NCBI GenBank assembly: GCA_035530515.1
Contig: DATKUO010000136.1
Location: 5,758 to 69,757, forward strand
Reading direction: 5' to 3'
DNA: 64,000 bases
Source of the DNA: Bacteroidales bacterium
Lineage (GTDB): Bacteria > Bacteroidota > Bacteroidia > Bacteroidales > VadinHA17
Both the position numbers and the translations under genes were made by a program. The number at the start of each line of letters is the position of its first letter. Positions within the stretch are counted from its first letter, which is position 1. Positions 17,699-33,008 of the stretch are shown in pieces. The notes under the pieces are model-generated. The model was not told the DNA's origin and searched no databases. It saw only the letters and a program-made list of their open reading frames with translations.

Positions 17699-20530
17699 AT
17701 GAGAAAAATATTATCAATTTTATATTTACTAAGTTTACCTTTGGCATTAAATGCAGCATTGAATGGTGATGGCTTGACGTCAGGTACTGCATATTACGGG
17801 GTAATTAACAGTTCTATTTCATGGACTGCAGGAGGTTACCCTGGTGGAGTGATTTACGTAGGTCAAACTGGTACTGGCCTGAATGATTTAGAAGTTGGAT
17901 CTGGGGGTTCATTAACTATTGGCTCAGGTATCACAATAAAATTCTGCACTACTACTTCTGACCTATTAATTACCGGAACAGGAATCCTTAATGCCTCCGG
18001 GGTTACATTTACGAAGAACTTTCTAGCCAACTGGGGACATATATCCTTTCAGAGTATGACAACCACAAGTCCAGAATATTACCCCTCTGTTATAGACAAT
18101 TGTGTGATTGAGTATGGAAATAGTGGAACAGGTGGGTATGGTGGCGGAATAAACATATCCTTTACTTATGTCACTCTGTCAAATTCTATAATAAGGTATA
18201 ATACCGGTTACATTGGAGGAGGAATTACAATTAATCAAACCTCCTCAGGCTTTAGCCCTACTATAAACAATTGTTTGGTTCATGATAATACAGCAACTTA
18301 TGCAGGTGGAGGTATAATGGTTTGGAACAAGTCCGCTGCAAAGATTATTAACTGCATAGTAAGGAATAACACATGTACAAATACTGCAACCTATGGCGGA
18401 GGTGGCATATTTATTTATACAACCACAGGTGCAGCAAAAATTATAAACTGTACAATAGTAAATAATACAAGTTCTTTTAATGGTGATAATATTCATTTTC
18501 ACCAGGTTTCCGGGCTGAGTAATAATGCAAGTTTAATAAACTGTGTGGTTTGGAGCTCAAATAATAATTCAGTGTACATGCAGGGCACTCCTATAGCTGC
18601 CAACTTTATTAACTCAGCTGTTCAGAGAGTGTATGATGCTTCCTTAAATGAAATAACCATTGAAACAACATTCACAAGCAGTTTTAAGATAAACTCCACA
18701 AATGAAGGGTCAAGTCCAAGTGGTCCATATTTCACCAAAGATGATGGAACAGACTGGACTCTCCAATTTCGTTCACCCTGTCGCGACCTAGGATCAACAC
18801 CCAGTCCAACTGTACCTAACGATTATATCGGAAATCCCCGTATTGGACCTTATGATATCGGCGCTTTTGAAGTGCAATACAGCAGATGGAAAACAACCCC
18901 TACTGGAGATATTGCCACTTGGTCTGATCCACTTAACTGGGAACAAGGAATATATCCTGGAAGTGGAGGAACAGGTGATGTTGTTATCCCTCCTCTTGCT
19001 GGTTCCGCGGTAGCTCCAAATATTTCGGGCACAACAAACATAGCTTCAACCAAATATATGATTCTTGAACCCGGAGCAAAAGCGACATTTGGTACTCTTA
19101 CAAACAACGGAACCCTGAAACTTAATTCCACTTCTGCCGGCGATGCCTCTTTGATAGTTGACACTTATACAAAAGGCGGCGGGGCAACCGAAGAGATCCA
19201 ACTTTACCTTTCAGGTGGAGGGAGTGCTGTTCTTGGAGATTATAAATGGCATTATATATCAACTCCAGTTTCTTCTATCTCCACTGATGTATTTACAGCG
19301 GTTACTTTCGACCTGGCTCAGTTTGTCGAAAGTCGTCCTGCCCTTTCATTATTGCAGGGATGGGTTGCTTTTGATGGTTATGTTTATTCAACAGGAGAAT
19401 ATGAAGAAGAACCTTTCTACTTTCTTACCCCGGGCAAAGGGTATAATTTCTGGGATGGGGTAAATAATACGTTCACGTTTGGGGGGCAACTAAATACAGC
19501 AGATGTCGTTATGCCTATACCTTACAGTAATGAAATCCCAGATAAATTTGGATATAACCTCCTCGGAAACCCGTTTTCTTCAGGTTTGAACTGGGATGAT
19601 ATTGTGGACGGTGTTTACTTTACTTATCCTCCATCTACTAGCAAAGGTTTGTATTTTACAAAAGACAACACCCAGTGTACATATATCGGAGGTGTCGGTA
19701 CACCTGGTGGCACAACTGGTATCATTCCTCCAATGCAGGGATTTTTCACAAAGACATATTCTACCAATACAATTACCCTTCCTGCTGCAGCAAGAACCCA
19801 TGATGCTATTCCAGCAAGGTATAAAGGAAGTACTATAATCCCTCTTGTACGTCTTCTGTTAAAAAGAGACAGCGTAACATCAGATGAGACTGTTGTAAGA
19901 TTTGATGATGCGGCTAAGTCTTACCTCGATAATGATTTCGATGCTCCTAAGATGTTTATTTCAGATACAAGAACGTTAATATGGTCGTCCGGCGATGAAA
20001 CCAATTATGCCATAAATGGACTGCCATTCCCGGAAACACTTGTGGAAATACCAATCACAATTAATGTAACTAAAGATACAATACATACTATTTCTTCTAC
20101 CCAGCTACAGGGGCTGGATGATTATGATGTTACTCTCAGAGACAACTTAACCGGCTTACCACCAACTGACCTTAAAACAACACCTGTTATAACTTTTACT
20201 TCAGGTTTAGGTACAATAACCGACAGGTTTGTACTTAATATCAGCACATTAACCACCGGAACTGAATCTCCTGTTCATAAAAATAATATTTTCAATATAT
20301 TTACCGGTAACGGTCTTATTAACATCCAGACTATTGCAGATGATTGGGAAGGAAAAACAGGCTCTGTCAGGGTACTTGATCTTACAGGAAAAACTGTCTC
20401 CAACCTCCTGAATGCTGAGTTCCAAAAGAATTCTCTGACACAGGTTCAGGCTCCATCTGCAAAAGGATTGTATGTTGTAGAGATAAGAGCAGGGTTTATG
20501 AGATATGTGGGTAAGGTGGTAATAAAATAG
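17699..20530 (+). CDS. Secreted right-handed beta-helix protein with T9SS C-terminal sorting domain
   Basis: 943 aa with a signal peptide and repeated N.....GGG/NNT beta-helix rungs (res ~150-300). The C-terminal ~80 aa end ...GLYVVEIRAGFMRYVGKVVIK, typical of Por/T9SS CTDs. Confidence 0.75.
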   Translation: MRKILSILYLLSLPLALNAALNGDGLTSGTAYYGVINSSISWTAGGYPGGVIYVGQTGTGLNDLEVGSGGSLTIGSGITIKFCTTTSDLLITGTGILNASGVTFTKNFLANWGHISFQSMTTTSPEYYPSVIDNCVIEYGNSGTGGYGGGINISFTYVTLSNSIIRYNTGYIGGGITINQTSSGFSPTINNCLVHDNTATYAGGGIMVWNKSAAKIINCIVRNNTCTNTATYGGGGIFIYTTTGAAKIINCTIVNNTSSFNGDNIHFHQVSGLSNNASLINCVVWSSNNNSVYMQGTPIAANFINSAVQRVYDASLNEITIETTFTSSFKINSTNEGSSPSGPYFTKDDGTDWTLQFRSPCRDLGSTPSPTVPNDYIGNPRIGPYDIGAFEVQYSRWKTTPTGDIATWSDPLNWEQGIYPGSGGTGDVVIPPLAGSAVAPNISGTTNIASTKYMILEPGAKATFGTLTNNGTLKLNSTSAGDASLIVDTYTKGGGATEEIQLYLSGGGSAVLGDYKWHYISTPVSSISTDVFTAVTFDLAQFVESRPALSLLQGWVAFDGYVYSTGEYEEEPFYFLTPGKGYNFWDGVNNTFTFGGQLNTADVVMPIPYSNEIPDKFGYNLLGNPFSSGLNWDDIVDGVYFTYPPSTSKGLYFTKDNTQCTYIGGVGTPGGTTGIIPPMQGFFTKTYSTNTITLPAAARTHDAIPARYKGSTIIPLVRLLLKRDSVTSDETVVRFDDAAKSYLDNDFDAPKMFISDTRTLIWSSGDETNYAINGLPFPETLVEIPITINVTKDTIHTISSTQLQGLDDYDVTLRDNLTGLPPTDLKTTPVITFTSGLGTITDRFVLNISTLTTGTESPVHKNNIFNIFTGNGLINIQTIADDWEGKTGSVRVLDLTGKTVSNLLNAEFQKNSLTQVQAPSAKGLYVVEIRAGFMRYVGKVVIK

Positions 20531-20649
20531 GTGCAAGGGCACAAAGGCACAAAGGCATAACGGCTTTGAAAATTGTATATACACCCAGACCGTTGAGCCA
20601 TTGAGCTGTTGAGCCATTTATTAATATTTGTTAATTAATTTTTAAAAAG

Positions 20650-20657
20650 TATTTTTG
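20650..20657 (+). promoter_or_regulatory. Bacteroidota -7 promoter box TAnnTTTG for the small peptide gene
   Basis: tatttttg lies 39 nt upstream of the ATG at 20696. Confidence 0.45.
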
Positions 20658-20695
20658 TATCTTGATTGAAAATTATCTTCCTGCGCTTGAAGAGT

Positions 20696-20878
20696 ATGTA
20701 TAATAAAATATCATCCAAAAAATCATACATCAAACCTGAAGTTACCAGAGTTATTCTGGATAACTCAATTTCTTTGGTTATGATGACCGACATGCCCCCA
20801 AACCCGGTCCCCAGAGGCGATGGCAGCAAGAGTGCGGATCCTTTTGCCAGTCCGTTCGGGGATAAGCCGTTTGGGTAG
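20696..20878 (+). CDS. 60-aa peptide of unknown family (MYNKISSKKSYIKPEVTRVILDNSISLVMMTDMPPNPVPRGDGSKSADPFASPFGDKPFG)
   Basis: It has its own promoter box and a downstream hairpin. The start is set at the first ATG, whereas the track uses the upstream TTG at 20666. The C-terminal coding sequence recurs as remnants at 24956-24973 and 29485-29541. Confidence 0.5.
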   Translation: MYNKISSKKSYIKPEVTRVILDNSISLVMMTDMPPNPVPRGDGSKSADPFASPFGDKPFG

Positions 20879-21100
20879 GCAAAAGTTCAGGAAGTACTGT
20901 AAGTAATTAAATGAGTCTCTGTGAGGGGGCTCTTTCTTTATAAAAAGGTTGAAGGGAGTTGAAGGGTGTTTAAGAGGGTTGAGGTTCTTACCTGTTCGGT
21001 ATTTCAACTTCTTCAACCTTGTTCAACCTTCTTCAACATTTATTATGCTGTAAGCCGCAGGACCGAAAGACTGCATGGACCGCACGACCGAATGCCAGGG
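20879..21100 (+). repeat. R element copy 1, full context directly after the peptide gene
   Basis: It has a hairpin GAGTC..GGCTC (20913-20932) and a T/A run. A word hairpin follows, ggttgaagg words at 20947-20984 against ccttcaac words at 21004-21037. The tail is gaccg/gcatg words. Confidence 0.7.
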
Positions 21101-21130
21101 TCGGTAACAAAGCAACAGCAGTGAGTAATC

Positions 21131-21340
21131 CTAATCTATTAATTCAAACTGGTTCTTTACTTTAATATACCTGTTTGGTTTTACCGATTGTGGATATTCT
21201 ATTTTACTATAATCCTTATCAACAAATTCAATTATGGCACCATCAGATATACTTTCCATAATAGAAGGGTCGCGTGATATCTGTATGAGAAAATCAAATG
21301 TCAACCCAATATTTCTTTCTGTATATTCTTTATTATTCAT
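21131..21340 (-). CDS. Small protein, second gene of a 2-gene TA-like pair (family not assigned)
   Basis: 69 aa. It has a 4-nt overlap with the upstream 121-aa ORF. Confidence 0.4.
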   Translation of the reverse strand: MNNKEYTERNIGLTFDFLIQISRDPSIMESISDGAIIEFVDKDYSKIEYPQSVKPNRYIKVKNQFELID

Positions 21341-21702
21341 TTTCGCTTCTTCTTTAAATATTTCTCTTTATAAAACTCCCATCTATCCTTTAAATCCTGC
21401 TCTGCGTATAACAATGCATCTTCTATATTGTCGATCCCAATTGCTTTTTTTTCTTTTGAACCATTCGGATTCAGAACATCCCGATGAAAAAATCCGTGAG
21501 CACAATCATATCTTACAATCGCCACCCATTCACCAATCAATAATGTTTCGTACTGTACAACAATATCAGACACTCTTCCCTTTTCGATCGTGATTCTAAT
21601 TCTAAGTCGTTCATTATTTTGTTTATTTATAAACTTAAGAAATTCCTTTTCCACAGCTATCCGGTTAATCAGAAGAGAAAGTGTTTTTACAAAAGTAATC
21701 AA
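21337..21702 (-). CDS. Small protein with RYDxAHG..H motif (TumE/DUF6516-like?), first gene of a TA-like pair
   Basis: 121 aa with VAIVRYDCAHGFFHRDVLNP. There is no ATG, so the start is TTG and therefore uncertain. Confidence 0.35.
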   Translation of the reverse strand: MITFVKTLSLLINRIAVEKEFLKFINKQNNERLRIRITIEKGRVSDIVVQYETLLIGEWVAIVRYDCAHGFFHRDVLNPNGSKEKKAIGIDNIEDALLYAEQDLKDRWEFYKEKYLKKKRK

Positions 21703-21787
21703 TTTTGCAAATCAACCATTAATAACAGAAAATTTTGCCTTACACAAAACACGAATTAACTAGCAACTAATTTACATAATTCAGGAA

Positions 21788-21858
21788 AATCAGAGCCGGG
21801 AGGGGGCTCTTTTTGTTTTAGAACGGGCGCGGGGCGCACGGTGTGCGGTACGAGGGGA
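21788..21858 (+). repeat. R element copy 2 (short)
   Basis: aatcAGAGCCgggagggGGCTCTttttgtttta is followed by gggcgcggggcgcacggtgtgcggtacgagg words. Confidence 0.65.
21792..21819 (+). terminator. Hairpin plus T-run (R element core)
   Basis: The stem is AGAGCC/GGCTCT (6 bp, perfect), the loop is gggaggg, and ttttgtttt follows. Confidence 0.5.
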
Positions 21859-21942
21859 GTAGTATTTTGAATTTTCTTAAATAAACTCATTCTGGTTTAA
21901 TCCCGATTGTCTGATTATTGAACGAAAAGTACCTATAGAAAT

Positions 21943-22175
21943 TTCCGGGCAAAAACGTAAACTTAATAGAATCAGAGTCAGGGAGAGGGCTCTTTTTTTT
22001 TAAAAAATGGCGTCGGGCGTCAGGTATCGGGCATCTGGCACCATAAAAATAAATTCCTGACTCTTGAAACCAAGGGCATATATAATATAGTTCTTTCTGA
22101 TGCCTGATGCCTGATAGGCAAGGGCATGACCAGAAGACTGCACGACAGCATGACAGCGCGAAGTGCAAGACCCCA
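21943..22175 (+). repeat. R element copy 3 (long)
   Basis: A degraded peptide-3' remnant (ttccgggcaaaaacgtaaactt) comes first. Then follow the hairpin, T10/A6, and a word hairpin (22009-22042 against 22097-116). The tail is ggcaagggcatgacc...gcaagacc. Confidence 0.75.
21974..22001 (+). terminator. Hairpin plus T-run (R element core)
   Basis: The stem is AGAGTC/GGCTCT (one G-U), the loop is agggagag, and 10 T follow. Confidence 0.5.
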
Positions 22176-22237
22176 GGGCAGCAGGACAGTCTCATAAATG
22201 AACAATAGCCGCTTTTCAATATTTTTAAAAATAATTG

Positions 22238-22245
22238 TATATTTG
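22238..22245 (+). promoter_or_regulatory. Bacteroidota -7 promoter box
   Basis: tatatttg lies 22 nt upstream of the ATG at 22267. Confidence 0.45.
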
Positions 22246-22266
22246 ACTATAATTCAGATTGCCAAA

Positions 22267-22572
22267 ATGAATGAGATTCTGATAAACCGGTTAAACGATT
22301 TAAAGAGACTTTGTGAAATATACAAAGTCAGAACAATGTATGCTTTTGGTTCAGTCTGTACTGATAAATTCAATGAGAACAGCGATATTGACTTTTTGAT
22401 TTCTTTTGACAACCTCTCATTAGACCAATACACTGACAATTATTTTAATTTACATTACGAATTGCAGGATTTATTTGATCGTCGAATTGATTTGCTCACC
22501 GAAAACTCTCTTTCAAACCCCTTCTTTATCAAGGGTATTAATCAAACAAAACAGTTGATTTATGCAGCTTGA
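22267..22572 (+). CDS. mntA: MNT-type nucleotidyltransferase antitoxin (MntA-like)
   Basis: The GS..x..SD.D motif is present (AFGSVCTDKFNENSDIDFLI). The start is moved to the ATG at 22267, after the promoter box. Confidence 0.75.
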   Translation: MNEILINRLNDLKRLCEIYKVRTMYAFGSVCTDKFNENSDIDFLISFDNLSLDQYTDNYFNLHYELQDLFDRRIDLLTENSLSNPFFIKGINQTKQLIYAA

Positions 22573-22903
22573 AATACAAAAGCATCTGTTTGATATTAAA
22601 ACTTCAATAGATTCAATTAATGATTATCTTGGAGAGAATAGAGACTTTAACGAATATAAAATCAATAAACTATTAAAGCGAGCCATAGAGCGTGAATTAG
22701 AAATTATTGGAGAAGCAGCCGGACGTATCTTAAAAATAGATTCCAATTTCCCGATTGAAAATGCAAGAAAGATAGTTGATTTGCGAAATTGGGTAATTCA
22801 TGGTTACGACATAATTGATGATGTAATAATTTGGGGTATAATCTCTAAACAACTTCCGATTCTAAAAAATCAGGTTGAGATTTTATTAAAGGATGAAATA
22901 TAA
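22562..22903 (+). CDS. hepT: HepT/DUF86 HEPN-domain RNase toxin
   Basis: 113 aa with the Rx4HxY HEPN motif (RNWVIHGY). It overlaps the MNT gene by 11 nt. Confidence 0.75.
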   Translation: MQLEIQKHLFDIKTSIDSINDYLGENRDFNEYKINKLLKRAIERELEIIGEAAGRILKIDSNFPIENARKIVDLRNWVIHGYDIIDDVIIWGIISKQLPILKNQVEILLKDEI

Positions 22904-23018
22904 TAAGAGTCCTGGAGAGGGCTCTTTTTTTTTGGAAACGGGCGTACGGCGTGAGGCGCATGGTAATTTTAAATCGCCCCGAACCGCATGCCGCAAGCCG
23001 CATCCCCCACTGCAAGAC
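22904..23018 (+). repeat. R element copy 4
   Basis: It starts right after the hepT stop. The hairpin and T9 are followed by ggaaacgggcgtacggcgtgaggcgcatgg words and the tail ...ctgcaagac. Confidence 0.65.
22906..22933 (+). terminator. Hairpin plus T-run directly after hepT
   Basis: The stem is AGAGTC/GGCTCT (one G-U), the loop is ctggagag, and 9 T follow. Confidence 0.6.
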
Positions 23019-23031
23019 AGCTTTGTTCAGG

Positions 23032-23295
23032 TTAACAGCAATGCTCAAGTAAATTACCGGTATAAAGGCTATAAACCGGAAATATTAAATCCCAATTGCG
23101 ACCCCAAACCAAATTACCATTTTCGATTTTGAATTTTTTAAAATGGTTTATGTTATTGTACTTATCCCATTGCGGATGGGGATTTTCTTTTAAAAACGGT
23201 CCAAAATCTATAACCCTGAAAGTATTGTCGGAAAACTCTATTCTAACCTTGTAAGACTTAATGTGAGTAGCTCGGATAACTATAATCGTATTCAT
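23032..23295 (-). CDS. DUF2442-family small protein
   Basis: 87 aa: I..A.....Y.V.IEFSDN..RVIDF..FL. It is translationally coupled (ATGA) to the upstream DUF4160 gene. Confidence 0.6.
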   Translation of the reverse strand: MNTIIVIRATHIKSYKVRIEFSDNTFRVIDFGPFLKENPHPQWDKYNNINHFKKFKIENGNLVWGRNWDLIFPVYSLYTGNLLEHCC

Positions 23296-23599
23296 GGTTT
23301 TACTTTCTTTGTGATTTTTTCACTTTTGACTTTTTGCTTATAAACATAAAACTGAAGCCACTTGGTTACAATATGGTTGTGATACACTTTAAGAAAATTA
23401 ATGATATCCTGATGTTTATTGTCTGGTATTGGTTGTCGGCCTTTAACATTGGCAAATTCTAATGATATTAAAGCCCCATTGTCATAAATGAAAGTAACCT
23501 TGCTTTCATACTCGCCATACTGAACATGTACAGAATAGGTTCATGGTCATTGGCATAAAAGAGAAATATAAATCCAAAATACTCGTATATTTTTGGCAT
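23292..23599 (-). pseudogene. DUF4160-family gene with a frameshift
   Basis: MPKIYEYFGFIFLFYANDHEP continues only in another frame as ..VHVQYGEYESKVTFIYDNGALISLEFANVKGRQPIP... The length is 308 nt, which is not a multiple of 3. Confidence 0.6.
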
Positions 23600-23942
23600 G
23601 AGCTATAATTTTAAACAATCCTATTACCTAATATTCCTGTAAAAATTGGACTTAGCCTAATCGATCGGAAGCCTATTGTTGCAATAGCAAAGATAAAATT
23701 TATTTTTAAATAAGATTTTTGGAGAATTTTCTAATACGTACCGTAAAATAGCCAATTTGCCTGATGGCGGATGCGAGCTTATCCAATAAATCGGGATTCG
23801 GTTGGCTACACCGAGTTCACTTCGTTCGGTTTTTGTGTTAAGACAAGAAAGTGACTGGGGTGCAGGGCAGCGCCTCTTCAAAACGCTATGAAGGGAGGCG
23901 GGCTGCGTGAGGCGTCAGGCGTGGGGCGTCACATGTCATTGA

Positions 23943-24623
23943 CTAGCTCTCAAACAGAGAATTTTGTCCTCCTGTTAATAAATCAGATATTAATAATCGA
24001 AGTCGATTTTCAAATAAACCAATATCATGTCGGGTATCTACCCAGTGTATTTCTTCTAACTTATCTGAAGGAAAGCCATCAAGTATTTTTGATGCTTCTA
24101 TCGCGTTAATCCACAAATCCTTTTCTGCTGCTTCTTTCATAATTTCAGTCCAGCTAAAACTATAATTTAATGCAATATAAACTATGTCAACCACATCTTT
24201 AGCCGAATGCCGGCTTAATGCAGTAAGTTTATTAGACAGAATATTTGTAATTATATCTGTTTTGCTGAATAACGTGGTAAATATTGGAATTCCTGTCCGG
24301 TAGGGAATATCATTTACGAAATCTATTTTTAAAATACCTTCATTTTGATAAACGAATACCCTGGAAAAGCTATCGCTGGTAGCAGCAATTTCGATCTTTA
24401 TCTTTTCTTCTTTAATTGAATTGATAATTAATTCAACCTGATGTTCAAACCCGGAATTTTGATTTACAAAAAAATCTAAATAATCAGAGTACCGGTGATT
24501 TAAATATGCTCTGCTAAGAGTTGTTCCTCCGGTGAGATAAAAATCAACCGGAAGTTTTTCCATAATACGCAATACTTTATCCTGAATAGGGTATAGTATA
24601 TTTTGATAATAACTCTTTTGCAT
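23943..24623 (-). CDS. AbiEii/AbiGii-family nucleotidyltransferase toxin (DUF1814), short form
   Basis: 226 aa with FYLTGGTTLSRAYLNHRYSDYLDFF. Confidence 0.65.
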   Translation of the reverse strand: MQKSYYQNILYPIQDKVLRIMEKLPVDFYLTGGTTLSRAYLNHRYSDYLDFFVNQNSGFEHQVELIINSIKEEKIKIEIAATSDSFSRVFVYQNEGILKIDFVNDIPYRTGIPIFTTLFSKTDIITNILSNKLTALSRHSAKDVVDIVYIALNYSFSWTEIMKEAAEKDLWINAIEASKILDGFPSDKLEEIHWVDTRHDIGLFENRLRLLISDLLTGGQNSLFES

Positions 24624-24885
24624 CTTTATAATATGTTTGTCGCTGTTGAGGATAAAGTTTGCTGATTACGCTTTCTGAAAGCAGTAATGACAAATTATTA
24701 TAACCAAGAATCTCTATCAAATCATACCAGTTAAGGCTATTGAGCCCTCTGATCAATATCTGTTCGTCCTGAAATGCTTTATATGGATTTTTCATTATTT
24801 GTCTTATAAGTACCTGACGTTTTTCTGCCGGCAAATCCCAAAGCATTCCATTTAACTTTATTTCAATTGACTTTTCCATACTCAT
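24577..24885 (-). CDS. Small protein upstream of the AbiEii-like gene (putative antitoxin)
   Basis: 102 aa. It overlaps the downstream NTase ORF. The family was not recognised with confidence. Confidence 0.4.
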   Translation of the reverse strand: MSMEKSIEIKLNGMLWDLPAEKRQVLIRQIMKNPYKAFQDEQILIRGLNSLNWYDLIEILGYNNLSLLLSESVISKLYPQQRQTYYKDAKELLSKYTIPYSG

Positions 24886-24955
24886 GAATTATACAAAAGT
24901 ATGAATTTTTATATTACCCCTGTTATTATCAGAAAATTCTGATGGTAAAAGAAAT

Positions 24956-25095
24956 CTGAGTCCGTTCGGGTAAGAACATGAATTCGGGGATGTGAAGCAC
25001 TGGAGAGGGAGCTTTCTTGTTTAAAAAAATGGCGCCGGGCGTCAGACTATTTCACAGGGCAGGGCGTGTGGTTTGGTCGCCCCGCTTCGGCGGGA
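24956..25095 (+). repeat. R element copy 5
   Basis: The peptide-3' remnant ctgagtccgttcgggtaa (= ..SPFG*) comes first. A weak hairpin, tttcttgtttaaaaaaatggcgccgggcgtcag and ctatttcacagggcagggcgtgtggt follow. Confidence 0.6.
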
Positions 25096-25100
25096 ACCTT

Positions 25101-26140
25101 TTAGTAAAGAAACCCAAACATCCATAACGGAATTACATTTCCGTTTCCGAACTCTACGCTGTCTGATGCTATATAACGGTTGTCATATTTACTGCCTCTG
25201 GTTTTCTTTTCACCATTATTTTCATTTTCGACAACAAGTAATATTCCGTTATCAGTCAGGAGAGATCCATTAACAGGTATAGTCATCTTGTGGCTGTACG
25301 CAAGCTGATTTGCCAGAAAAGTCTCATTCACATTAATCCTGGAGGGATGTTTGCTTCCAATTGCAAATGGGATGTTTGTATTTTCAAGAAAGATTTTTGC
25401 AGGTTTTTGCATGCGGGAAATGCCATGGGCTTCGTGGTAGAGGTTCCTGATAAGCCCTGCATCGGCAAGGAACCCGAGATAGCTTATAATTGTATTACGT
25501 TCTAAATCCATAAGTCTGCTGAGCATTTTTATATTTGGAATGAATGGGGATTCCTCCGCAATGGCAAGGAGCATCTGTTTTATCTTATAACATTTCGCGA
25601 CATCAAATTTGCGCAGCAGGGGAAGTTCCGTATCGATAATTGTGTTAATGACCTCACTCAGCCGTATATAATATAGCTCTGGCACCTCTTTAAAAAACGG
25701 ATAGTAACCTGATCTGAGGTATCTTGAAAAATGTTGCAAGGGTTTCAGCTGAGCGGTAACGTCGCGCGAGATCCTGTGAAGATGATTTTAAGTGCCGGGA
25801 AATCGTCGTAGATATTTTTTATCTCCTGCGACCAATAGGGGTATTTGTGGACCTCATCAAGGAAAAGGATCTTCCCGCCCTGTTTTACGAACCTGTCAGT
25901 AAGGTCGGATAGTTTATTGCCTGAGAACCAAATATCATCAAGGCTTACATAAAGTACTGAAGGATCTGTTTCATAGTGTTTTTTGATATACTGAAGCATC
26001 AGAGTAGTTTTCCCTACACCACGGGCTCCCTTTATTCCGATGAGCCTTGCCTTCCAATTGATCTCATCAATGATCGTCCTGGTGAATCCGAGAGAAACGG
26101 GGATCAGCTTATTCCTGAATTTTTCAAAAATTCTTTCCAT
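25101..26140 (-). pseudogene. AAA ATPase (AAA_14/DUF4143-type, ATPase 2) disrupted by frameshifts and an internal deletion
   Basis: The N-terminal ORF (Walker A GARGVGKTT, Walker B LFLDEVH) ends ..IIFTGSRATLPLS*. DLARR is in a second frame and LKPLQHFSRYLRSGYYPFFKE in a third. The roughly 70 aa normally found between DLSRR and GYYPFF are missing. Confidence 0.65.
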
Positions 26141-26269
26141 TTTGCTTATTCATTTAAGCAAATATACTTATTTTTTGCTTATTCTACAAAGCATTTTAAT
26201 ATTTTCATGCCTCTTTTGTTAAAATATCTAACACATATTGATTATTATGTTAAGCAATTAAAATTATTT

Positions 26270-27142
26270 TTAGCTTAATTCCTCTACAATTCTTTCGACT
26301 GCAGTCCTGAAGAATTCTTTGCTCCAGATATCAAGTACCCGCACATCCGCTACAAAAGGAATAACCTCTTTCCTGGCTTCATCAATATTTAAAACATCTA
26401 TTGCATTCACAATAAGATCTTTCAATTTTACCAGAGATAAAGGCTTATCTCCTTCATAATGCCCCGATTGGCGCATTCGCTCCTCAAGGTGAGAAAGACT
26501 TAGTACAGGATAACCTGATGTATACCAAATAAAATCATACCAGTCACGTCCTTTAATACGGCTTTTCCATTTCCGGAATAAGAGAGCATGCACCTTACCG
26601 GCAAATAAAGATGGAAGGGTGTAAGAACGAACAGCAAACTGAACCGGGGTAAACACATATCTCATTTCAGTCCTGAAGCCCTGGGGAGGATTCGTATCAA
26701 CTTCCAGTTTCACTTTCAATATCGATTGCCGGTTTACCCCGGAAAGAATTTGTTCCGGCGCTTTAATTACGATCAGCTGATTATAGGTATTCCCCTTCAG
26801 AAATGCAGATTCAATATTAGTTGCAGCCGTTTTGTGTTTTACTTCGAAGGTTACCTCAAAGCCAAATGCTTCCAGTTCATTTTGCAACGCATTGGAATAT
26901 ATTGAAAAGTTAAACTCCTGAGATGGTTTTAATAAAGAAAAGTCAAGATCCTCCGAAAACCTGTCTAACCCATATAAAATCCGTAGTGATGTTCCTCCTA
27001 AGAAAGCTGCATGCTCAAAAAATTTGGCCCTCCAAAGGCCTAACAATGCCAGCGATTGCATTATTTCACGTACAGCATTTACCATTCCGGCTGTCGTTTT
27101 TGGCACCGGATCCGGAAGTATACTTTTTATCAGGCTATTCAT
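26270..27142 (-). CDS. abiEii: AbiEii/AbiGii-family nucleotidyltransferase toxin (type IV TA)
   Basis: LGGTSLRILYGLDRFSEDLDFSL is present. The start is moved to MNSLIK (ATG at 27142), giving an ATGA overlap with the abiEi stop. Confidence 0.8.
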   Translation of the reverse strand: MNSLIKSILPDPVPKTTAGMVNAVREIMQSLALLGLWRAKFFEHAAFLGGTSLRILYGLDRFSEDLDFSLLKPSQEFNFSIYSNALQNELEAFGFEVTFEVKHKTAATNIESAFLKGNTYNQLIVIKAPEQILSGVNRQSILKVKLEVDTNPPQGFRTEMRYVFTPVQFAVRSYTLPSLFAGKVHALLFRKWKSRIKGRDWYDFIWYTSGYPVLSLSHLEERMRQSGHYEGDKPLSLVKLKDLIVNAIDVLNIDEARKEVIPFVADVRVLDIWSKEFFRTAVERIVEELS

Positions 27143-27801
27143 AAACCTCCTCCAAACCGTTTTAGTAAATATTCCATAAGCCAAAGCACCTTACGTGTAG
27201 CATAAGCACGTTCAATAACACCAATTCTGTCAGTTCTGATCAAAGGTGCAAGTGTATCCTCATCAATCCGAAGATCAGCGAACAGATAGTCTGCGTATGA
27301 AGCTATTGAGGTTGGCCTAAAACGGCCGTCTGTCCATACCTTATCGGCAAGGGCTTTCAAGGGTTCAGCTATCAGCACACTGCCTCCGGGGTTATTATGC
27401 CTTACGAGGCAAGCCGAAAACCGCTTCCCGGTAAGCTGATTATATGAAAACCGGCCCACCGGTGTAAGGAATTCCCGTGAACGACCAGTAGCAATAGACG
27501 TAATTGTGGTAACCCGTTCCGGGATAAGACCGTACCAGGCCAAAGCATAGTCAATGCTAATGGCAGAGGGTCCATACACCAGATTTGCCAATGGTTCCAA
27601 CTCAAGGGAAGTCCGGCGCCAAACCTGTCCAAATACGTAAAGTCCTTTTCTTACACGGATAATATGCCCCCTCTTCAAAAGAACAGAAACCGTATCCCTG
27701 GGTTTACGATAATTTGAAAGAGTAAACATCAATTGAGAGTAGTCGAAAATTTCACCCTCAATTTTGTTTCGTATCTGCTCAATTGGTATCGTTTTTTGCA
27801 C
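27139..27801 (-). CDS. abiEi: AbiEi-family antitoxin / transcriptional regulator
   Basis: 220 aa with ...LLKRGHIIRVRKGLYVFG... It lies upstream of, and coupled to, the AbiEii gene. Confidence 0.75.
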   Translation of the reverse strand: MQKTIPIEQIRNKIEGEIFDYSQLMFTLSNYRKPRDTVSVLLKRGHIIRVRKGLYVFGQVWRRTSLELEPLANLVYGPSAISIDYALAWYGLIPERVTTITSIATGRSREFLTPVGRFSYNQLTGKRFSACLVRHNNPGGSVLIAEPLKALADKVWTDGRFRPTSIASYADYLFADLRIDEDTLAPLIRTDRIGVIERAYATRKVLWLMEYLLKRFGGGL

Positions 27802-27846
27802 CTTATGTCCAGCTTAATTGGACTTATCGTGCAAATATACGTGATT

Positions 27847-27977
27847 AAATAGAATCCGAGTCAGGGAGAGGGCTCTTTTTTGTTTAAAAAAAGGCGTCGG
27901 GCCACGGGCATCAGGCGTCAGGAACGGATAAGCAAGGGCATGACCGTATGACTGCATGACTGCATGACCGCAAGACC
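27847..27977 (+). repeat. R element copy 6
   Basis: aaatagaatccGAGTCagggagagGGCTCttttttgtttaaaaaaaggcgtcgggccacgggcatcaggcgtcagg is followed by the tail aagggcatgaccgtatgactgcatgactgcatgaccgcaagacc. Confidence 0.75.
27858..27885 (+). terminator. Hairpin plus T-run (R element core)
   Basis: The stem is GAGTC/GGCTC (one G-U), the loop is agggagag, and ttttttgttt follows. Confidence 0.45.
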
Positions 27978-28113
27978 AACAGACCTGCCTGGTTTTTTTT
28001 CATGGTATCTCTTTTCAATTGCCTTCGGACTTCGGCCAACAAAGTCGGCGAGCTCGCAAACGAAGTGAGCAAATCGTATCTGAAAAATATTTTTAAACAA
28101 GTAAATAATTATT

Positions 28114-28121
28114 TACCTTTG
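28114..28121 (+). promoter_or_regulatory. Bacteroidota -7 promoter box
   Basis: tacctttg lies 12 nt upstream of the ATG at 28133. Confidence 0.4.
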
Positions 28122-28132
28122 TACATAAATTC

Positions 28133-28183
28133 ATGAAGTGTGCTGAATTATGGAAAGGAAGATACACAAAGGTACAGGATTGA
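28133..28183 (+). pseudogene. hicA: Possible hicA toxin remnant (16 codons)
   Basis: MKCAELWKGRYTKVQD* begins like Bacteroidota HicA proteins (MKxxEL..). It sits 17 nt upstream of a HicB-like gene. Confidence 0.3.
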
Positions 28184-28200
28184 AATATAGATAGTCAGAT

Positions 28201-28644
28201 ATGGTTGTGAAAAAGAAGATTGTGGTTATTATTGAAAAGACTGATACGGGTTTCTCCGCCTTTACAACAGACTATTCTGTATATACAACGGGGTCTTCAA
28301 TGAATGAATTATTTTATAACATCAGGGAAGCATTTATTCTATATTTTGATGATGACAAATTTGATGATTCACGGATAATATATGAAATTGATTTTAGTCA
28401 ATTCTTTAAATATTATAAAGTTTTAAACTCCAAAGCTTTCGCAGGAAGGATTGGATTAAATCCAACATTATTATCCCAATATATAAGCGGTCGTAAAAAG
28501 CCTTCAGCATCACAAAGCCGAAGAATTCTTTATGGGATAAATAAGATAGGCCAGGAACTATCAGAAATGAATGTTATTTATGAAAGGAAGATGGAAGATC
28601 GGGTTAAGACTAAGAGAATTAGGGACTTAGGGACAGGGGCTTAG
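28201..28644 (+). CDS. hicB: HicB-family antitoxin with C-terminal HTH
   Basis: 147 aa. The N-terminus VVIIEKTDTGFSAFTTDYSVYTTGSSMNEL..I.EA has the HicB fold pattern. The C-terminus reads AGRIGLNPTLLSQYISGRKKPS. Confidence 0.65.
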   Translation: MVVKKKIVVIIEKTDTGFSAFTTDYSVYTTGSSMNELFYNIREAFILYFDDDKFDDSRIIYEIDFSQFFKYYKVLNSKAFAGRIGLNPTLLSQYISGRKKPSASQSRRILYGINKIGQELSEMNVIYERKMEDRVKTKRIRDLGTGA

Positions 28645-28838
28645 AGGAAGAAACGCATAAGCTCAGGCAAAACCCCAGGGACTTCAACAACTATATTAAA
28701 CAAAATCTTAGCTGGTCAAAACGGTTTGGCAAGATTAAGAGGAAAGACTTCTGGGATATTCTTGACGATAATACCATCCGGGCAGACAAAAATCTGGGTG
28801 AAAATACTATTGAAAAGTTCAAAACATTTGCTGAAACG

Positions 28839-29450
28839 ATGAAAAATAGTGAGGCAACTATGTTGCAAGAAATGACTGCCAACATATTTTTCAGGATTTG
28901 TGAAATATGTTATGATGCTAACGACTATTTTATTGGCAATGAAAAATCAATCTCTCCACGAGAAAAATATCTTAATATGGCTGATGGCCGTGATGCAGGT
29001 CTAAGAAATATTGATGGGGATTCTCCCAATGCATTTTATGAATGGTATCATAGTAAGGAAATATTGGGTGCCCATCCCTGGGAAATTTGCCGGGGTGGAA
29101 ATTCCACCCATATTTCGCTTTTTATTTCAGAAGTACAAAACAAATGGGCTATCCGTCTGGCAGGTTCAAGTATTGGCAGGGTTGAAGAAACCGTCAGAAT
29201 GGCTGTTGCCCTTTTTGAAAAGAAGATCCCTTTTATACTTCGCGATATGCAAGAAATTGTGAGTATGGTTACCGGTAATGACTTTATAGGGATTGTCCCT
29301 GATACTGTTTACCCCAGTTATTGCCACAGTTTATTCCCCAGAGAAGATAATATAATCGATTTTATGAATCTCGGATTTGATAAAAAAATGAATCCGAAAA
29401 TAATCGAAAAACCCCTGTGGTATCCGTTAGAAGAAATCTCAATGATTTAA
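28839..29450 (+). CDS. Hypothetical protein, probably 5'-truncated
   Basis: 203 aa from the first ATG. The same frame is open and protein-like back to 28621 (..DFNNYIKQNLSWSKRFGKIKRKDFWDILDDNTIRADKNLGENTIEKFKTFAET) with no ATG, and it overlaps the hicB end. Confidence 0.4.
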   Translation: MKNSEATMLQEMTANIFFRICEICYDANDYFIGNEKSISPREKYLNMADGRDAGLRNIDGDSPNAFYEWYHSKEILGAHPWEICRGGNSTHISLFISEVQNKWAIRLAGSSIGRVEETVRMAVALFEKKIPFILRDMQEIVSMVTGNDFIGIVPDTVYPSYCHSLFPREDNIIDFMNLGFDKKMNPKIIEKPLWYPLEEISMI

Positions 29451-29735
29451 AAAAGAACGTGCGACTGTACGGTGGTGCGGCAGCAACAAAGGAGCAGATG
29501 AGCCGTTTCAGGGTCCGTTTGGGGATGAGCCGTTCGGGTAAGAACGTGACTTAGCTAAATGGGAGTGCTGGAGGGCACTCTTTTTTGTTTAAAAAAAGGC
29601 GTCGGGCATCGGGCATCAGGCGTCAGGAACTGATAGGCAAGGGCACATATATAATATAGTTCTTCCTAAAGCCTGAAACCAGTCGCCTGTAGCCATTAAT
29701 AAATTTCCCTGAAACCTGTAGCCTGAAGCCTGAAT
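29451..29735 (+). repeat. R element copy 7 (long)
   Basis: It begins with a peptide-3' remnant translating ..GSNKGADEPFQGPFGDEPFG* (stop at 29539-41). Then come the hairpin, ttttttgtttaaaaaaaggcgtcgggcatcgggcatcaggcgtcagg, caagggcacatatataatatagttcttcc and gcctgaaRcc words. Confidence 0.75.
29563..29590 (+). terminator. Hairpin plus T-run (R element core, covarying stem)
   Basis: The stem is GAGTGC/GCACTC (6 bp, perfect) and the loop is tggagg. The stem sequence differs from other copies but pairing is kept. Confidence 0.5.
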
Positions 29736-29771
29736 AAATGCAATTTTGAATTAGTGCTGACTTGTGATTGA

Positions 29772-29807
29772 GGGATTGCGAGCCCCGCCCCGCGGGACGA
29801 AGCAATC
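29772..29807. repeat. Single degenerate unit of the palindromic repeat family
   Basis: ggattgcgag-CCCCGCcccGCGGG-acgaagcaatc. Confidence 0.55.
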
Positions 29808-29999
29808 TCCTGATCCCATCCACAGTATCTTGTATTATTTAATGGAGCAGTGCTCCAAACCCCGGTTCAGTAAATTTTACCTTATTTATTTCTACGCTAA
29901 CTACGAGAAAACTCTGAGACTGTGAATTAACTCCTGCCTTTCACCCAGGCCTTATTTCACAGGGCGAGGTGCGTGGTATGCGGCGCATACCTCAAGCCG

Positions 30000-31316
30000 C
30001 TAACAGCATGCTACCTCCGCAACAGAATATATAGGAAACGATCTGATTTGATCATATGATGAAAAGTTTTCGAGAGAAAAACGAATACCATAAGGTGTGT
30101 TTTTTTCTTTCAGGAAAAGATATAAACTCTGCATTGATCCTTTTGACCCGGATTTAACTTCAACCGGAATAATATCCTTATCTTTCTGAATAAGATAGTC
30201 TACCTCAGCGTTGCTGTTAAGAGCTTCCCGATGCCAATAAAACAGATCCATGTGATGGTAACATGATTGGGCCTTCAGCAATTCAAGACCAACAAACAAC
30301 TCTGCAATACTACCCTTATTAATAAGATTAAAACTTTCTTCAAATAACAGCTCCTGAATATTCAAACCCAACGACCGCTGAAAGAGACCGGTATCAAAAA
30401 TGAGCATTTTTCGCTTCTTAGAGTCAGATTCAGCTCCCGGAGGTATTCCGTTTGCTGACGAGTGAGTAACCGGAATTACAAGGCCTGCCATAATCAATAA
30501 ATCAAGCGCTTCTTTAATCTGCTTATGATTTGCCTCCGAAACCACTCCGGCATATTTAAATTTATTTCCAACTTGTTGAACAACTGAGTCAAAAACCTCA
30601 GCGATGCGTAACATTGGTACCCGTTTCCGGTATTTTGTAAAATCTGCTTTCAGTGAAATAATAAGATCATCCAATATCCGCTGGCATTCAGCCAGATTAT
30701 GACCCTGAACATAATAAGCAACTACTTCCGGCATTCCTCCAAGAATCAGGAATTTCTTAAAATATGCCAGAAGTTTCTGGTGAATGGCATCCTGTAACGG
30801 AAAATCAATTGATGCTCCCTTTTTTGCTTTTAAAAGGATGTGTTCTGCACATGCTGAAAGAAATTCGTTAAAAGAAAAAGGATAAACAAACATTGAACGG
30901 ATCCTGCCCACACCAAATGAAGGCAGATCTTCAAACACAAACTCAAGCAGAGAACCTGCCGCAATTAAATGCAATCCGGGTAATTTTTCATAGAAAAAGC
31001 GTAATGAAGATATTGCAGGCAAACAAGCCTGTATTTCATCGAAAAATAATAACGTCTTTCCTTCCTTAACAGGAATATTAAACATTATTGAGAGATTATC
31101 GCATAATGTCTGCGGCGATAAATCATCATTAAAAAGGCTATGCACTTTTTTCAGTTCCTCAAAATTGATTTCAAGGAAAAATTCAAAATGTTTTGAAAGT
31201 TCACGCACAGATGACGACTTACCAACCTGTCTGGCTCCTCTCAGAAGCAATGGTTTCCTTGACGGATCTCTGGTCCATGTTAAAAGCTCAGAATCTAATT
31301 CCCTTTTTAAATACAT
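30000..31316 (-). CDS. AAA+ ATPase with DUF4143-type C-terminal domain (ATPase 3)
   Basis: 438 aa with Walker A GARQVGKSS and Walker B LLFFDEIQ. The C-terminus has AEVDYLI...IPVEVKSG. Confidence 0.8.
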   Translation of the reverse strand: MYLKRELDSELLTWTRDPSRKPLLLRGARQVGKSSSVRELSKHFEFFLEINFEELKKVHSLFNDDLSPQTLCDNLSIMFNIPVKEGKTLLFFDEIQACLPAISSLRFFYEKLPGLHLIAAGSLLEFVFEDLPSFGVGRIRSMFVYPFSFNEFLSACAEHILLKAKKGASIDFPLQDAIHQKLLAYFKKFLILGGMPEVVAYYVQGHNLAECQRILDDLIISLKADFTKYRKRVPMLRIAEVFDSVVQQVGNKFKYAGVVSEANHKQIKEALDLLIMAGLVIPVTHSSANGIPPGAESDSKKRKMLIFDTGLFQRSLGLNIQELLFEESFNLINKGSIAELFVGLELLKAQSCYHHMDLFYWHREALNSNAEVDYLIQKDKDIIPVEVKSGSKGSMQSLYLFLKEKNTPYGIRFSLENFSSYDQIRSFPIYSVAEVACC

Positions 31317-31322
31317 TTTATG

Positions 31323-31405
31323 TTTTTCAAAAGCTATATCATAACATATTTCCCATTTTTCAAAAGCAATATTACAGCTATATTTCCATTTTTCAAAAGC
31401 AATAT
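31323..31405. repeat. Three spaced copies of (cca)tttttcaaaagcWatat, about 33-nt period, directly upstream of ATPase 3
   Basis: Copies lie at 31323-31339, 31353-31372 and 31386-31405, and the last two are identical over 20 nt. On the minus strand each reads ..gcttttgaaaaa.., a near match to the -7 box. Confidence 0.8.
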
Positions 31406-31508
31406 GCTAAAATGTGAGGAATGAGATTTAGAGGGTTCAAAGCGTAGTGGAGGGTTTTTAACCAGTATGCTGCGTGTTTCTACAAGCTCAACCTTTGTGC
31501 CTTGTACC

Positions 31509-32420
31509 TTAGATGCCAAACTCCCCGGTATCAATCCAATCCATCTCCAGGAGTGACCAGAAGTCGAGCGCCAGACGGTTAAGCACATATTCATACGGGA
31601 GCCATCCGTAACCCTTTTCGCCCCAGGTTTCACCCCAGGAGTTGCGTATCAATAATGCTCCTTTTGTCTCTTTGTCACACTTTGTATTTCTGATCTTCCG
31701 GTTGTCATCATAACCCATCGCAACAACCGCATGTCCCCATTGTGCAGATTCTCCCTTACAGGGATAGGGTATGTCGCCCGGCTTATCAGTGTCTTCAAAC
31801 GACTTAAAACCCCAGAAGCCGAACATGGACGGGATGCCTGCCTCAAGATATTTCTTTATGGAAGAGAGCACCTCCGCCGCTGGCAGGTCAGAGCCCTGCG
31901 GATCGTGACAGAAATATTTTACCGACTGGTAATTATCGGCCAATGAATAAACAAAGCTGCCGGGCTCCTTATCATAGTCCGCGACATTATATGGCCAGTA
32001 CTTTTCATCCGGCACTCCGCACAAAACCAGTGCACCCATTGTATCCCTGAGCCATGCGCCGGTGTCGCCGGTGACCTGCATAAGGTTTCTCGCGGCTTTA
32101 TACAAGAAGAGCCTTGAAGCTTCAATATGTTTTCCATACGCCCTTCTCTCAAAATACTCAACAATACCGACACCTGCATGGGCAGTACATGACCCGAGAC
32201 TAAGCTGATCTTCAACCGGAGAACACCACTCACTGAGATCAACCACAGTCTGCTGCTTGTGGTTTTTGGCTGTCAGACCCAGTCTTTTGTTAAAGACTTT
32301 AATTTCAGTGTTAGTGTTGGTATAATCGCGAAGGTCAGGCAGGGGAGAAAGCCATCCTGTTCCAACCTGATGGGAAAGACCGCCAATGCTTATTTTTTTG
32401 TTAAGTATGTTGTTATCCAT
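31509..32420 (-). CDS. Papain-family (C1) cysteine peptidase, no signal peptide
   Basis: 303 aa with catalytic Cys in DQLSLGSCTAHA, His in WGHAVVAMGYDD and Asn/Trp in IRNSWGETWGEKGYGWLPY. Confidence 0.8.
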   Translation of the reverse strand: MDNNILNKKISIGGLSHQVGTGWLSPLPDLRDYTNTNTEIKVFNKRLGLTAKNHKQQTVVDLSEWCSPVEDQLSLGSCTAHAGVGIVEYFERRAYGKHIEASRLFLYKAARNLMQVTGDTGAWLRDTMGALVLCGVPDEKYWPYNVADYDKEPGSFVYSLADNYQSVKYFCHDPQGSDLPAAEVLSSIKKYLEAGIPSMFGFWGFKSFEDTDKPGDIPYPCKGESAQWGHAVVAMGYDDNRKIRNTKCDKETKGALLIRNSWGETWGEKGYGWLPYEYVLNRLALDFWSLLEMDWIDTGEFGI

Positions 32421-32447
32421 AATATGACGTTTAAGATATTTCTTCCT

Positions 32448-33008
32448 CTAATTGTTTTTCTGTGCGGGAGCAATTTCCTTTAATGTCGTTCCGTCGCGGC
32501 CGGGAATAATTTCATAAAGCTTAAAGTATGTACCGGATTCATCAGTATCAGACATTCCCGTGCCTGTGAATGCCTGAGCGGCATAAGCACTTTTGGAAAG
32601 CATGGCTGCAATGGCCTCAAGGGTCTCTGAGAACATTGATTCACTGACCACCCCGTAAGAGGTAAGCGAGCTGTTCGTGAATGTCAGCTTAATATCATTT
32701 GAGCCTATGCCGGTTTTAAACTCCAGGTACTGGGGATTTGCAAGGTCCGGCAGATATACGACAGATGTTTTGACCGTATTATCCTTCTCCGCCCTGTATT
32801 CCACAAGGAGATAGGGTTTGAGGGTATAATAGCGTAGTCCCGTTTCATTCTTCAGATCAGGATCGGAGTAAAACTTTACCGTGGCACATCCTGCCATAAT
32901 AATAACGCTTCCAAAGAGAAGGAGAAGGATTATTAACTTTTTAACCGCTCCCGGGCGGAGGCCGTAAAGAACGGCCGTGTGTTTTTTTGTCATTGCTATT
33001 GGTTTCAT
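32448..33008 (-). CDS. Lipoprotein of unknown function, upstream partner of the C1 peptidase
   Basis: 186 aa with the signal/lipobox ...LLLFGSVIIMAGC. It lies 27 nt upstream of the peptidase gene on the same strand. Confidence 0.55.
   Translation of the reverse strand: MKPIAMTKKHTAVLYGLRPGAVKKLIILLLLFGSVIIMAGCATVKFYSDPDLKNETGLRYYTLKPYLLVEYRAEKDNTVKTSVVYLPDLANPQYLEFKTGIGSNDIKLTFTNSSLTSYGVVSESMFSETLEAIAAMLSKSAYAAQAFTGTGMSDTDESGTYFKLYEIIPGRDGTTLKEIAPAQKNN

Follow-up and report, generated by a model that had tools for sequence, protein, structure and literature searches.

How does a row of toxin-antitoxin and abortive-infection genes on a chromosome come to be partitioned by copies of one non-coding repeat that all face the same way? 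This question is raised by a 64-kb stretch of chromosomal DNA from an uncultured Bacteroidales bacterium (contig DATKUO010000136.1 of assembly GCA_035530515.1; hereafter the window), whose genes include IleRS, DnaG, PBP1 and a polysaccharide locus, and in which seven copies of such a repeat, the R element, have been recognized. Comparison with relatives identifies R as the native 3' flank of a conserved small peptide gene, beginning at its stop codon, and the whole is best described as a hotspot in which the flank itself is copied again between one acquisition and the next, so that the resulting array is partitioned from within. The relatives compared were 80 metagenome loci and 6 added ones (86 loci in total, designated here by L and a number), each centred on the peptide gene; besides the window, about 0.6 Mb of these peptide-centred loci was searched for R.

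Searching the window with the hairpin word GGAGAGGGCTCTTTTTT (up to three mismatches) returned exactly seven sites, all on the + strand (20922, 21799, 21982, 22914, 25002, 27865 and 29570), where shuffled sequences gave an average of 0.29. A covariance model of the R core, 79 positions long and built from the seven window copies together with three copies of relatives, scored the seven at 51-85 bits. The next best match in 15000-40000, with filters off, reached 21 bits and fell in a heptamer-repeat region, and no further R core was found in the window by the word search of its full length or by the covariance scan of 15000-40000. All seven cores overlap the intervals given in the preliminary description of this DNA, whose claim of seven co-oriented copies is thus borne out.

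The first copy, R1 (20879-21100; core 20890-20965), is the native one and comprises a GAGTCTC/GGGGCTC hairpin with its T-run, an inverted heptamer/decamer stem of the GTTGAAGG type (20942-20964 and 21011-21033) and a tail. R2 (21768-21858; core 21768-21845) is short, with an AGAGCC/GGCTCT hairpin, a T-run and G-rich heptamers, and forms a doublet with R3 (21943-22175; core 21950-22028), in which the core is accompanied by a G-block (22009-22039), a complementary block (22096-22115) and the tail. The hairpin of R4 (22904-23018; core 22882-22960) begins 3 nt past the stop codon of HepT, between convergent genes (dG -12.8). R5 (24956-25095; core 24970-25050) is degenerate, with a weakened stem, a T/A-run and heptamers, and R6 (27833-27977; core 27833-27912) separates two cassettes of divergent transcription and is at the 3' end of neither. 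The terminal copy, R7 (29451-29735; core 29538-29617), carries about 66 nt of the 3' end of the peptide gene, a GAGTGC/GCACTC hairpin, a T/A-run, a G-block and complementary heptamer blocks (dG -13.9, z = -3.2). The preliminary description had divided R into five shared modules, which fared differently. The first, a remnant of the 3' end of the peptide gene, is native in R1, clear in R7 (about 22 codons, GSNKGADEPFQGPFGDEPFG and stop), reduced to 9-13 nt in R5 (gtccgttcggGTAA) and faint in R3; none was found in R2, R4 and R6. The hairpin is as described, with all three stems listed for it correct (AGAGTC/GGCTCT, AGAGCC/GGCTCT and GAGTGC/GCACTC), and so is the third module, a T-run, G, TTT and A-run. 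The G-rich words with their complementary block are real but not specific to R, since they are period-7 repeats that also occur elsewhere in the window, and the tail is confined to R1, R3 and R6 and missing from the other four copies.

The gene from which R derives its position encodes a 60-aa peptide (20696-20878, + strand) with the motif KKxYIKPE..LDNSISLVMMT..PPNPPPRGGGSKG..PFxSPFGDKPFG-stop. Its family has 261 homologues in Bacteroidales metagenomes, and no Pfam or NCBIfam family matched it. The peptide is very strongly conserved, the SISLVMMT and SPFGDKPF motifs being near-invariant. In relatives the gene is always preceded by that of a beta-helix protein of about 930 aa sorted by the type IX secretion system (T9SS); in the window, this left neighbour encodes a T9SS-sorted beta-helix surface protein of 943 aa (17699-20530, + strand; Por_Secre_tail match), and the synteny is kept in L005, L006 and L007. 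Directly after the peptide stop codon, relatives carry the R core, typically as ..TTYGG GTAA GAACGWGA TTTATATAAAT c AGAGYN-loop-NRCTCT T6 GTTTA followed by heptamers, and it is because the same core directly follows the gene in these genomes that we regard R as its native 3' flank.

What the R core itself is can be read from its hairpin. A stem of 6-9 bp followed by a U-run gives it the sequence features of intrinsic terminators, with folding energies of -7 to -14 kcal/mol, and six of the seven window copies were flagged as a hairpin plus T-run on the + strand, the decayed R5 being the exception. Over 52 R copies from 28 sources, 93.8% of the stem cells were paired, and none of 500 shuffles reached the observed score; the stem covaries, with 13 cells altered on both sides and inner pairs that alternate among UG/CG/UA and, at another position, among CG/GC/AU. 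A U·G wobble occurs in 24 of the 52 copies, which is compatible only with a structure of the RNA (or of the + strand). Set against 52% (51.7%) at codon third positions, identity is 70-82% in the stem arms and 70% in the T/A-run, and 57% in the left arm, 58% in the loop and 49% in the heptamers; only the stem and the T-run appear to be constrained. Because the loop is so near the third positions, its conservation reflects relatedness and not specific selection. That either the left arm or the loop serves as a sequence for specific recognition or as a small RNA (sRNA) was likewise rejected as unsupported, their identities (56.6-58.5%) being close to those at third positions. A search of Rfam with R returned nothing at gathering thresholds or at E <= 1.

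By these features, the R core is a predicted intrinsic terminator, and the A-rich tract upstream of it may make it bidirectional. Like other intrinsic terminators, it unites a GC-containing hairpin, a U-run and a covarying stem, with an upstream A-tract in some copies; it differs from them in being a homologous family repeated in one locus, including positions that are not 3' ends (R6 and R3). The earlier statement that R elements are not just the terminators of adjacent genes therefore holds in part. R is not simply a terminator of its neighbours, because R6 lies between divergent genes and the R2/R3 doublet encloses no gene; on the other side, R originates as a terminator, six of the seven copies remain terminator-like, and R1, R4 and R5 each adjoin a neighbouring gene at its 3' end. 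In a secondary role, the copies probably continue to act as terminators and insulators of transcription.

Structured, repeated, non-coding and of composite modular build, R could also be an autonomous dispersed element comparable to a miniature inverted-repeat transposable element (MITE), a repetitive extragenic palindromic (REP) sequence or an sRNA, spreading by itself and dense here by chance; its heptamer modules are indeed dispersed. The core behaves otherwise. Scanned over 15000-40000 and the related loci, the covariance model found copies only downstream of the peptide gene: all 58 of the strong copies (58/58) in the window and the peptide-centred loci lie there and on the strand of that gene, and none was found in the upstream flanks of related loci. 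Neither terminal inverted repeats nor target duplications accompany R, it matches no Rfam family, and no R-like copies were found on viral contigs, a search of them with the R left arm having given 102 chance matches, none with an R hairpin or the peptide gene. A dispersed structured element, which the preliminary description had offered as its second option, finds no support in these results, and we consider it highly improbable; the confinement of the core, within the window and these loci, to the array and to one strand likewise separates R from REP sequences, bacterial interspersed mosaic elements and MITEs. A scan of GTDB genomes with a degenerate hairpin pattern proved too permissive, returning more than 118 generic terminators from all phyla; among the matches listed, only L056, L082 (a GTDB Bacteroidales metagenome-assembled genome) and L104 were relevant.

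Relatives share the gene order around R, which runs from polysaccharide export genes through the T9SS and peptide genes and a variable interval to a NusG-like gene. In the window, the right border of the interval is a NusG/UpxY-like gene (34494-35045, - strand). The interval measures from 753 nt (L186) to 13.6 kb (the window), and its gene content differs in each genome. Judged by this comparison, it is a chromosomal hotspot that gathers toxin-antitoxin, abortive-infection, ATPase and intervening-sequence protein (IVP) cassettes. The count of recurrent arrays was restricted to the 32 loci whose sequence extends 3 kb or more beyond the peptide gene: an R-type flank is present in 18 of them, and 9 carry at least two R copies. 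By the covariance model, L126 has 10 copies, L082 and L163 have 3 each, and L159, L144, L176, L201/L202 and L005 have 2 each. The arrays of relatives enclose genes for MNT/HepT, AbiEi/Eii, YoeB/YefM, DUF2283 with a RelE-like nuclease, ORF6N, ATPases and IVP.

Orthologous cassettes of relatives end at R. The MNT/HepT segment of the window (22222-22903) is 87% identical to L056 6139-5459, where it is the sole insert between the native R and the NusG gene; the homology takes in the R3 tail at its left and runs as far as the stop codon of HepT, the point at which R4 starts. For the AbiE cassette (23956-24941), identity with L005 13796-14782 is 84% over 987 nt, and in each case a short peptide remnant and an R come next, in this order. 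The first cassette of the window is 86% identical to L190 3232-3559, likewise placed directly after the peptide gene and R. L082 and L126 share MNT/HepT-R and R-ATPase-R units in differing order. In several cases, an internal R with its right-hand cassette corresponds to a native arrangement of peptide gene, R and cassette elsewhere: window R3 to L056, the copy at L126 12220 to L141 and L137, and those at L126 4619 and 4802 to L157.

The similarities with L126 bear on exchange. Over 224 nt, R7 and its flank share 94% identity with L126 12185-12408, the last R of that locus, and R6 is 89% identical to L126 8947-9097, whose neighbours differ, while the T9SS and peptide genes of the window and L126 are only 70-75% identical. 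L126 and L206, a contig of the window's own strain, come from the same Joint Genome Institute (JGI) sample, 3300031673. Since R6 and R7 resemble L126 more than the flanking genes do and the sample is shared, the comparison points to exchange of R-linked segments between lineages; as an alternative, the window and L126 may be more closely related than they look, if the left anchor region has been replaced repeatedly. Whether the internal peptide remnant of L126 has clearly more in common with the window than with the intact gene of L126 was also considered; the difference is marginal (82.7% against 79.4%) and was not used.

Left of internal copies, the retained pieces of the peptide gene are 0, 6, 7, 9, 13, 36-66, 39-45 and at least 75 nt long, the last being a second, truncated peptide copy inside the array of L126 (6280-6352). 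This copy, together with the roughly 66 nt of coding sequence retained in R7 and the local tandem duplication seen in L126 (63 nt, 6440-6555), would agree with tandem duplication of a peptide-R unit, in which the extra peptide copies decay, toxin-antitoxin genes are inserted independently and R has no role in acquisition. We regard such a history as unlikely. A second match to the peptide gene occurs in only 1 of the 86 loci, so intact tandem peptide arrays are not seen; R types are diverged within one array and yet up to 94% identical to those of another genome; and the native counterparts of internal R copies with their right-hand cassettes are not predicted by duplication in place.

The account that we favour, and hold to be probable without being assured of it, is serial acquisition anchored in the conserved peptide/R region, which would re-create R each time, by recombination that is either homologous or of the homology-facilitated illegitimate kind. 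The latter is an established process, as is ectopic homologous recombination; from the comparisons above, we infer both this route and the role of R itself as a recombination substrate. DNA from related strains would enter by recombination anchored in the region of the T9SS gene, the peptide gene and R, and its other end would join illegitimately or within another R copy. The incoming peptide gene, R and cassette would be placed to the left of the resident R, which would be displaced rightwards and retain an old peptide-gene stub of arbitrary length. Repetition would produce co-oriented R copies that delimit cassettes, and recombination between these copies could later reshuffle or delete cassettes. 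Illegitimate joins are expected to give remnants of variable length, and the account as a whole would explain the single orientation, the position only downstream of the peptide gene, the variable stubs, the cassettes on either strand, the lack of mobility genes and the correspondence of internal copies to native ones. The proposal in the preliminary description of a hotspot regenerated at each acquisition, with tandem accretion, fits the comparative data, namely recurrent arrays with different cassettes, copies on one strand, boundaries at R and 3'-end remnants.

It is important to note that several observations weigh against serial anchored acquisition. The R copies of one array are about 62-88% alike, which makes them a poor RecA-dependent substrate. 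Some hotspot cassettes have no R between them (L007; window 29736-34494), which means that R duplication accompanies only part of the acquisitions. The confinement of R is known within the 64-kb window and the peptide-centred loci and not for whole genomes. No gain or loss of a cassette was found among strain-level contigs, all five exact-protein look-ups giving the same cassette order. Finally, several of the short remnants cluster at 6-13 nt (..ttYgg|GTAA) and could mark a preferred site-specific crossover.

This last point leads to an integron-like, site-specific system, in which an unlinked recombinase would use the 3' end of the peptide gene or the R hairpin as its site and move circular cassette-R units, R being comparable to attC/attI. 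Sedentary chromosomal integrons have cassettes rich in toxin-antitoxin genes, and the content of the present array is similar; co-oriented repeats delimit cassettes, the same cassette-plus-R units stand in differing order in L082 and L126, several internal copies have their start no more than 6-13 nt from the stop codon (..ttYgg|GTAAGAAC), and the hairpin structure is conserved. Other results speak against it. No recombinase or transposase family had a Pfam match in any sizeable open reading frame (ORF) of the window, and none was found among the 20 array ORFs scanned in L126, L082, L159 and L163. The attC boxes R'' and R' (RYYYAAC..GTTRRRY, 50-200 nt apart) are absent from every R with its 30-nt flanks on both strands, and 20500-30000 holds 0 attC-type box pairs against 3.7 in shuffles. 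Left boundaries are scattered over more than 100 nt, the loop and left arm are barely above synonymous-site conservation, and the cassette genes are of mixed orientation with their own promoters. No chimeric hairpins fitting a fixed crossover point were seen; such hairpins were considered as its trace and rejected, since the only mismatched stems (R5 and L126 4619) look like point decay. A site-specific system is, in our judgement, rather improbable. Smaller still is the chance we give to its boldest form, namely that R arrays are the visible part of an undescribed cassette-capture system, an analogue of the integron, in which an unlinked recombinase and an attachment site formed by stop codon and terminator hairpin would let circular units of a defence or toxin-antitoxin cassette and R move between co-occurring species.

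Comparison with known systems gives similar answers. Integron cassette arrays and clusters of attC sites lacking integrase (CALINs), both defined in PMC4889954, are among the known systems closest to the R array: like it, they consist of co-oriented structured repeats that each close a short cassette, and like it, they are sedentary chromosomal arrays, rich in toxin-antitoxin genes, whose cassettes are reordered in related genomes. R lacks attC boxes, however, and there is no IntI within 64 kb (IntI is needed for a complete integron, not for a CALIN); R is the terminator flank of an ordinary gene, starts at its stop codon and has variable left boundaries, and whereas integron cassettes are mostly promoterless and co-oriented with the array, those found here are on either strand. 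Because the defining attC and IntI tests fail, the R array is not a member of the integron family. Genomic islands, too, can accrete in tandem where an att site lies within a gene's 3' end, as in integration of the tRNA/tmRNA type and in the accretion of cis-mobilizable elements and integrative and conjugative elements. As in such islands, direct repeats hold the 3' end of the target gene, an intact gene is regenerated at one end and older copies are displaced; in contrast to them, the cassettes are 0.2-3 kb long, no integrase match was found in the scanned cassette ORFs, the remnants vary from 0 to at least 75 nt where a 3'-end repeat of fixed length is expected, and the target is the stop codon and terminator of a protein-coding gene. 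In the minimal mobile elements of Neisseria and in defence hotspots flanked by core genes, different cassettes lie between two fixed conserved genes and are presumed to arrive by homologous recombination without mobility genes. The same conserved flanking genes with differing content are found here as well, and as a locus the interval is a hotspot of this type; minimal mobile elements have alternative single inserts, whereas here the flank itself is re-copied into a partitioned, growing array. The term minimal mobile element is used in PMC1797815 and PMC3082526.

The gene content between copies, as given in the preliminary description, stands for the most part: the MNT/HepT, AbiE, ATPase and orphan-ORF cassettes and a first gene pair, now seen to include DUF7718, are present, DUF2442 is weak, DUF4160 was not detected and hicAB is unconfirmed. 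The - strand carries four of the gene-bearing cassettes and the + strand two. The first (21131-21702, -) consists of a 69-aa ORF and a DUF7718 protein found by family search. The MNT/HepT toxin-antitoxin genes (22267-22903, +) have Polbeta/NTP_transf_2 and HepT-like matches and correspond to PADLOC PDC-S09. They are followed by a DUF2442-like ORF with a degraded upstream ORF (23032-23599, -), a weak match (E = 0.0016) below the curated cut-off; the family search did not detect DUF4160 in this region. An AbiEii-like protein of 226 aa with a 102-aa partner (23943-24885, -) comes next, and then an AAA_14 ATPase split in two ORFs (25101-26140, -), likely a pseudogene. The AbiEii/AbiEi type IV toxin-antitoxin or abortive-infection pair (26270-27801, -) is supported by Pfam and by PADLOC (AbiEii 8e-102, AbiEi 2.7e-51). 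The last R-delimited cassette (28201-29450, +) holds a helix-turn-helix (HTH) protein of 147 aa and the orphan 203-aa ORF; 28201-28644 has a weak HTH match only, its HicB-like N-terminus is unconfirmed and no HicA ORF was found. The same hotspot continues, with no R between its genes, in 30000-34315, where an AAA_14/DUF4143 ATPase (-), a papain-like peptidase (-), a 186-aa ORF (-) and HTH/HipA genes (+) are found.

Further observations concern these genes and their surroundings. Genes for AAA_14/DUF4143 or ATPase_2 proteins (PADLOC candidate PDC-S01) are located at 16053-17210 (-), 25101-26140 (-, broken) and 30000-31316 (-), as well as in L005, L082, L126 and L163; they recur on both sides of the peptide locus and within the arrays of several genomes. 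A blastn search of plasmids with 20600-28500 gave a weak ATPase match only. Upstream of the ATPase start at 31316, positions 31323-31405 contain 2.5 copies of a 33-nt tandem repeat (TTTTTCAAAAGCAATAT..). The block of the peptidase and the 186-aa ORF (31496-32920) is 92-94% identical to L130 9087-10596, where core genes are only about 74% identical, which suggests its horizontal transfer; in L130, the block is preceded by a partial R match (9050-9088). L005 10740-11090 carries five tandem units of about 63 nt bearing a cattgcgaggccgacg..gaagcaacc hairpin, and the window has a single similar hairpin just past R7 (29775-29815; ggattgcgag..cgaagcaatc); these units may be another small repeat family of the clade. 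Toxin-type genes outside the R-partitioned part include a pair of HTH_3 and HipA-like kinase genes adjoining the NusG-like gene (33304-34315) and, within the polysaccharide locus, the gene of a DUF4258 protein (2951-3298).

The heptamers of R form a subject of their own. The fourth module is a period-7 tandem repeat, (GGCRTCR)n, which also occurs at 38710-38745, 39171-39193 and 51186-51209 of the window, and Tandem Repeats Finder reported arrays of period 7/8 both within R copies and at the ends of many other genes; the fourth and fifth modules are generic heptamer repeats, whose class extends over the window. Throughout it, short tandem arrays of 7-8-nt units, highly varied in unit sequence, lie right after stop codons or in intergenic regions, for example at 837-903, 1301-1345, 6297-6360, 8331-8377, 20534-20557, 20593-20618, 38710-38745 and 51186-51209. 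Intergenic heptamer repeats known as short tandemly repeated repetitive (STRR) sequences, with TAACTGA as an example, have been described in cyanobacteria, Beggiatoaceae and a few Bacteroidetes (PMC4679880). The last two modules of R, and these modules only, are likewise intergenic period-7/8 tandem arrays; they differ from STRR sequences in their units, in being often inverted, stem-forming pairs, and in some of them enclosing IVP genes. Our observation of this STRR-like feature is limited to the window, and we found no description of such arrays for Bacteroidales. In several relatives (L155 1369-1430, L005 10195-10245, L056, L082, L144, L176 and L183), the peptide stop codon and the R core are separated by a heptamer block with a duplication of about 10 nt on its flanks (TAAGAACG.. 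and GGAAGAACG..), and the duplication at L126 6440-6555 takes in half of the hairpin together with such a block; heptamer blocks seem to arise by a process that duplicates its target.

Four genes for IVP (PF05635, the 23S rRNA intervening-sequence protein, a four-helix bundle) occupy intergenic gaps of the window, at 917-1297 (-), 6333-6713 (-), 14642-15001 (-) and 38851-39204 (+), and others were found in L126 (4193-4552 and 12416-12772) and L186 (565-915). Three of the four window genes are bracketed by inverted tandem-heptamer arms about 400-435 nt apart, and in L126 an IVP gene lies inside a heptamer block of the R7 type. These bracketing arms resemble the stem of an rRNA intervening sequence, and two of the IVP proteins also match bAvd-like weakly. 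In R1, R3 and R7, the G-block paired with its complementary block resembles such a stem devoid of an ORF, and the IVP genes look like insertable units.

Chromosomal acquisition sites without mobile-element genes are common and poorly explained, and at the site studied here the repeated flank can be compared to growth rings that record successive acquisitions. The 79-nt R model is a cheap and specific finder of toxin-antitoxin and defence arrays in a widespread group of Bacteroidales from sediment, peat and sludge, and it marks off uncharacterized cassette genes, among them the 69-aa/DUF7718 pair and the 203-aa orphan. Should there be a dedicated recombinase, these arrays would represent a new cassette platform outside the integron family; if there is none, they would show clearly how recombination anchored in homology can build an array in nature.

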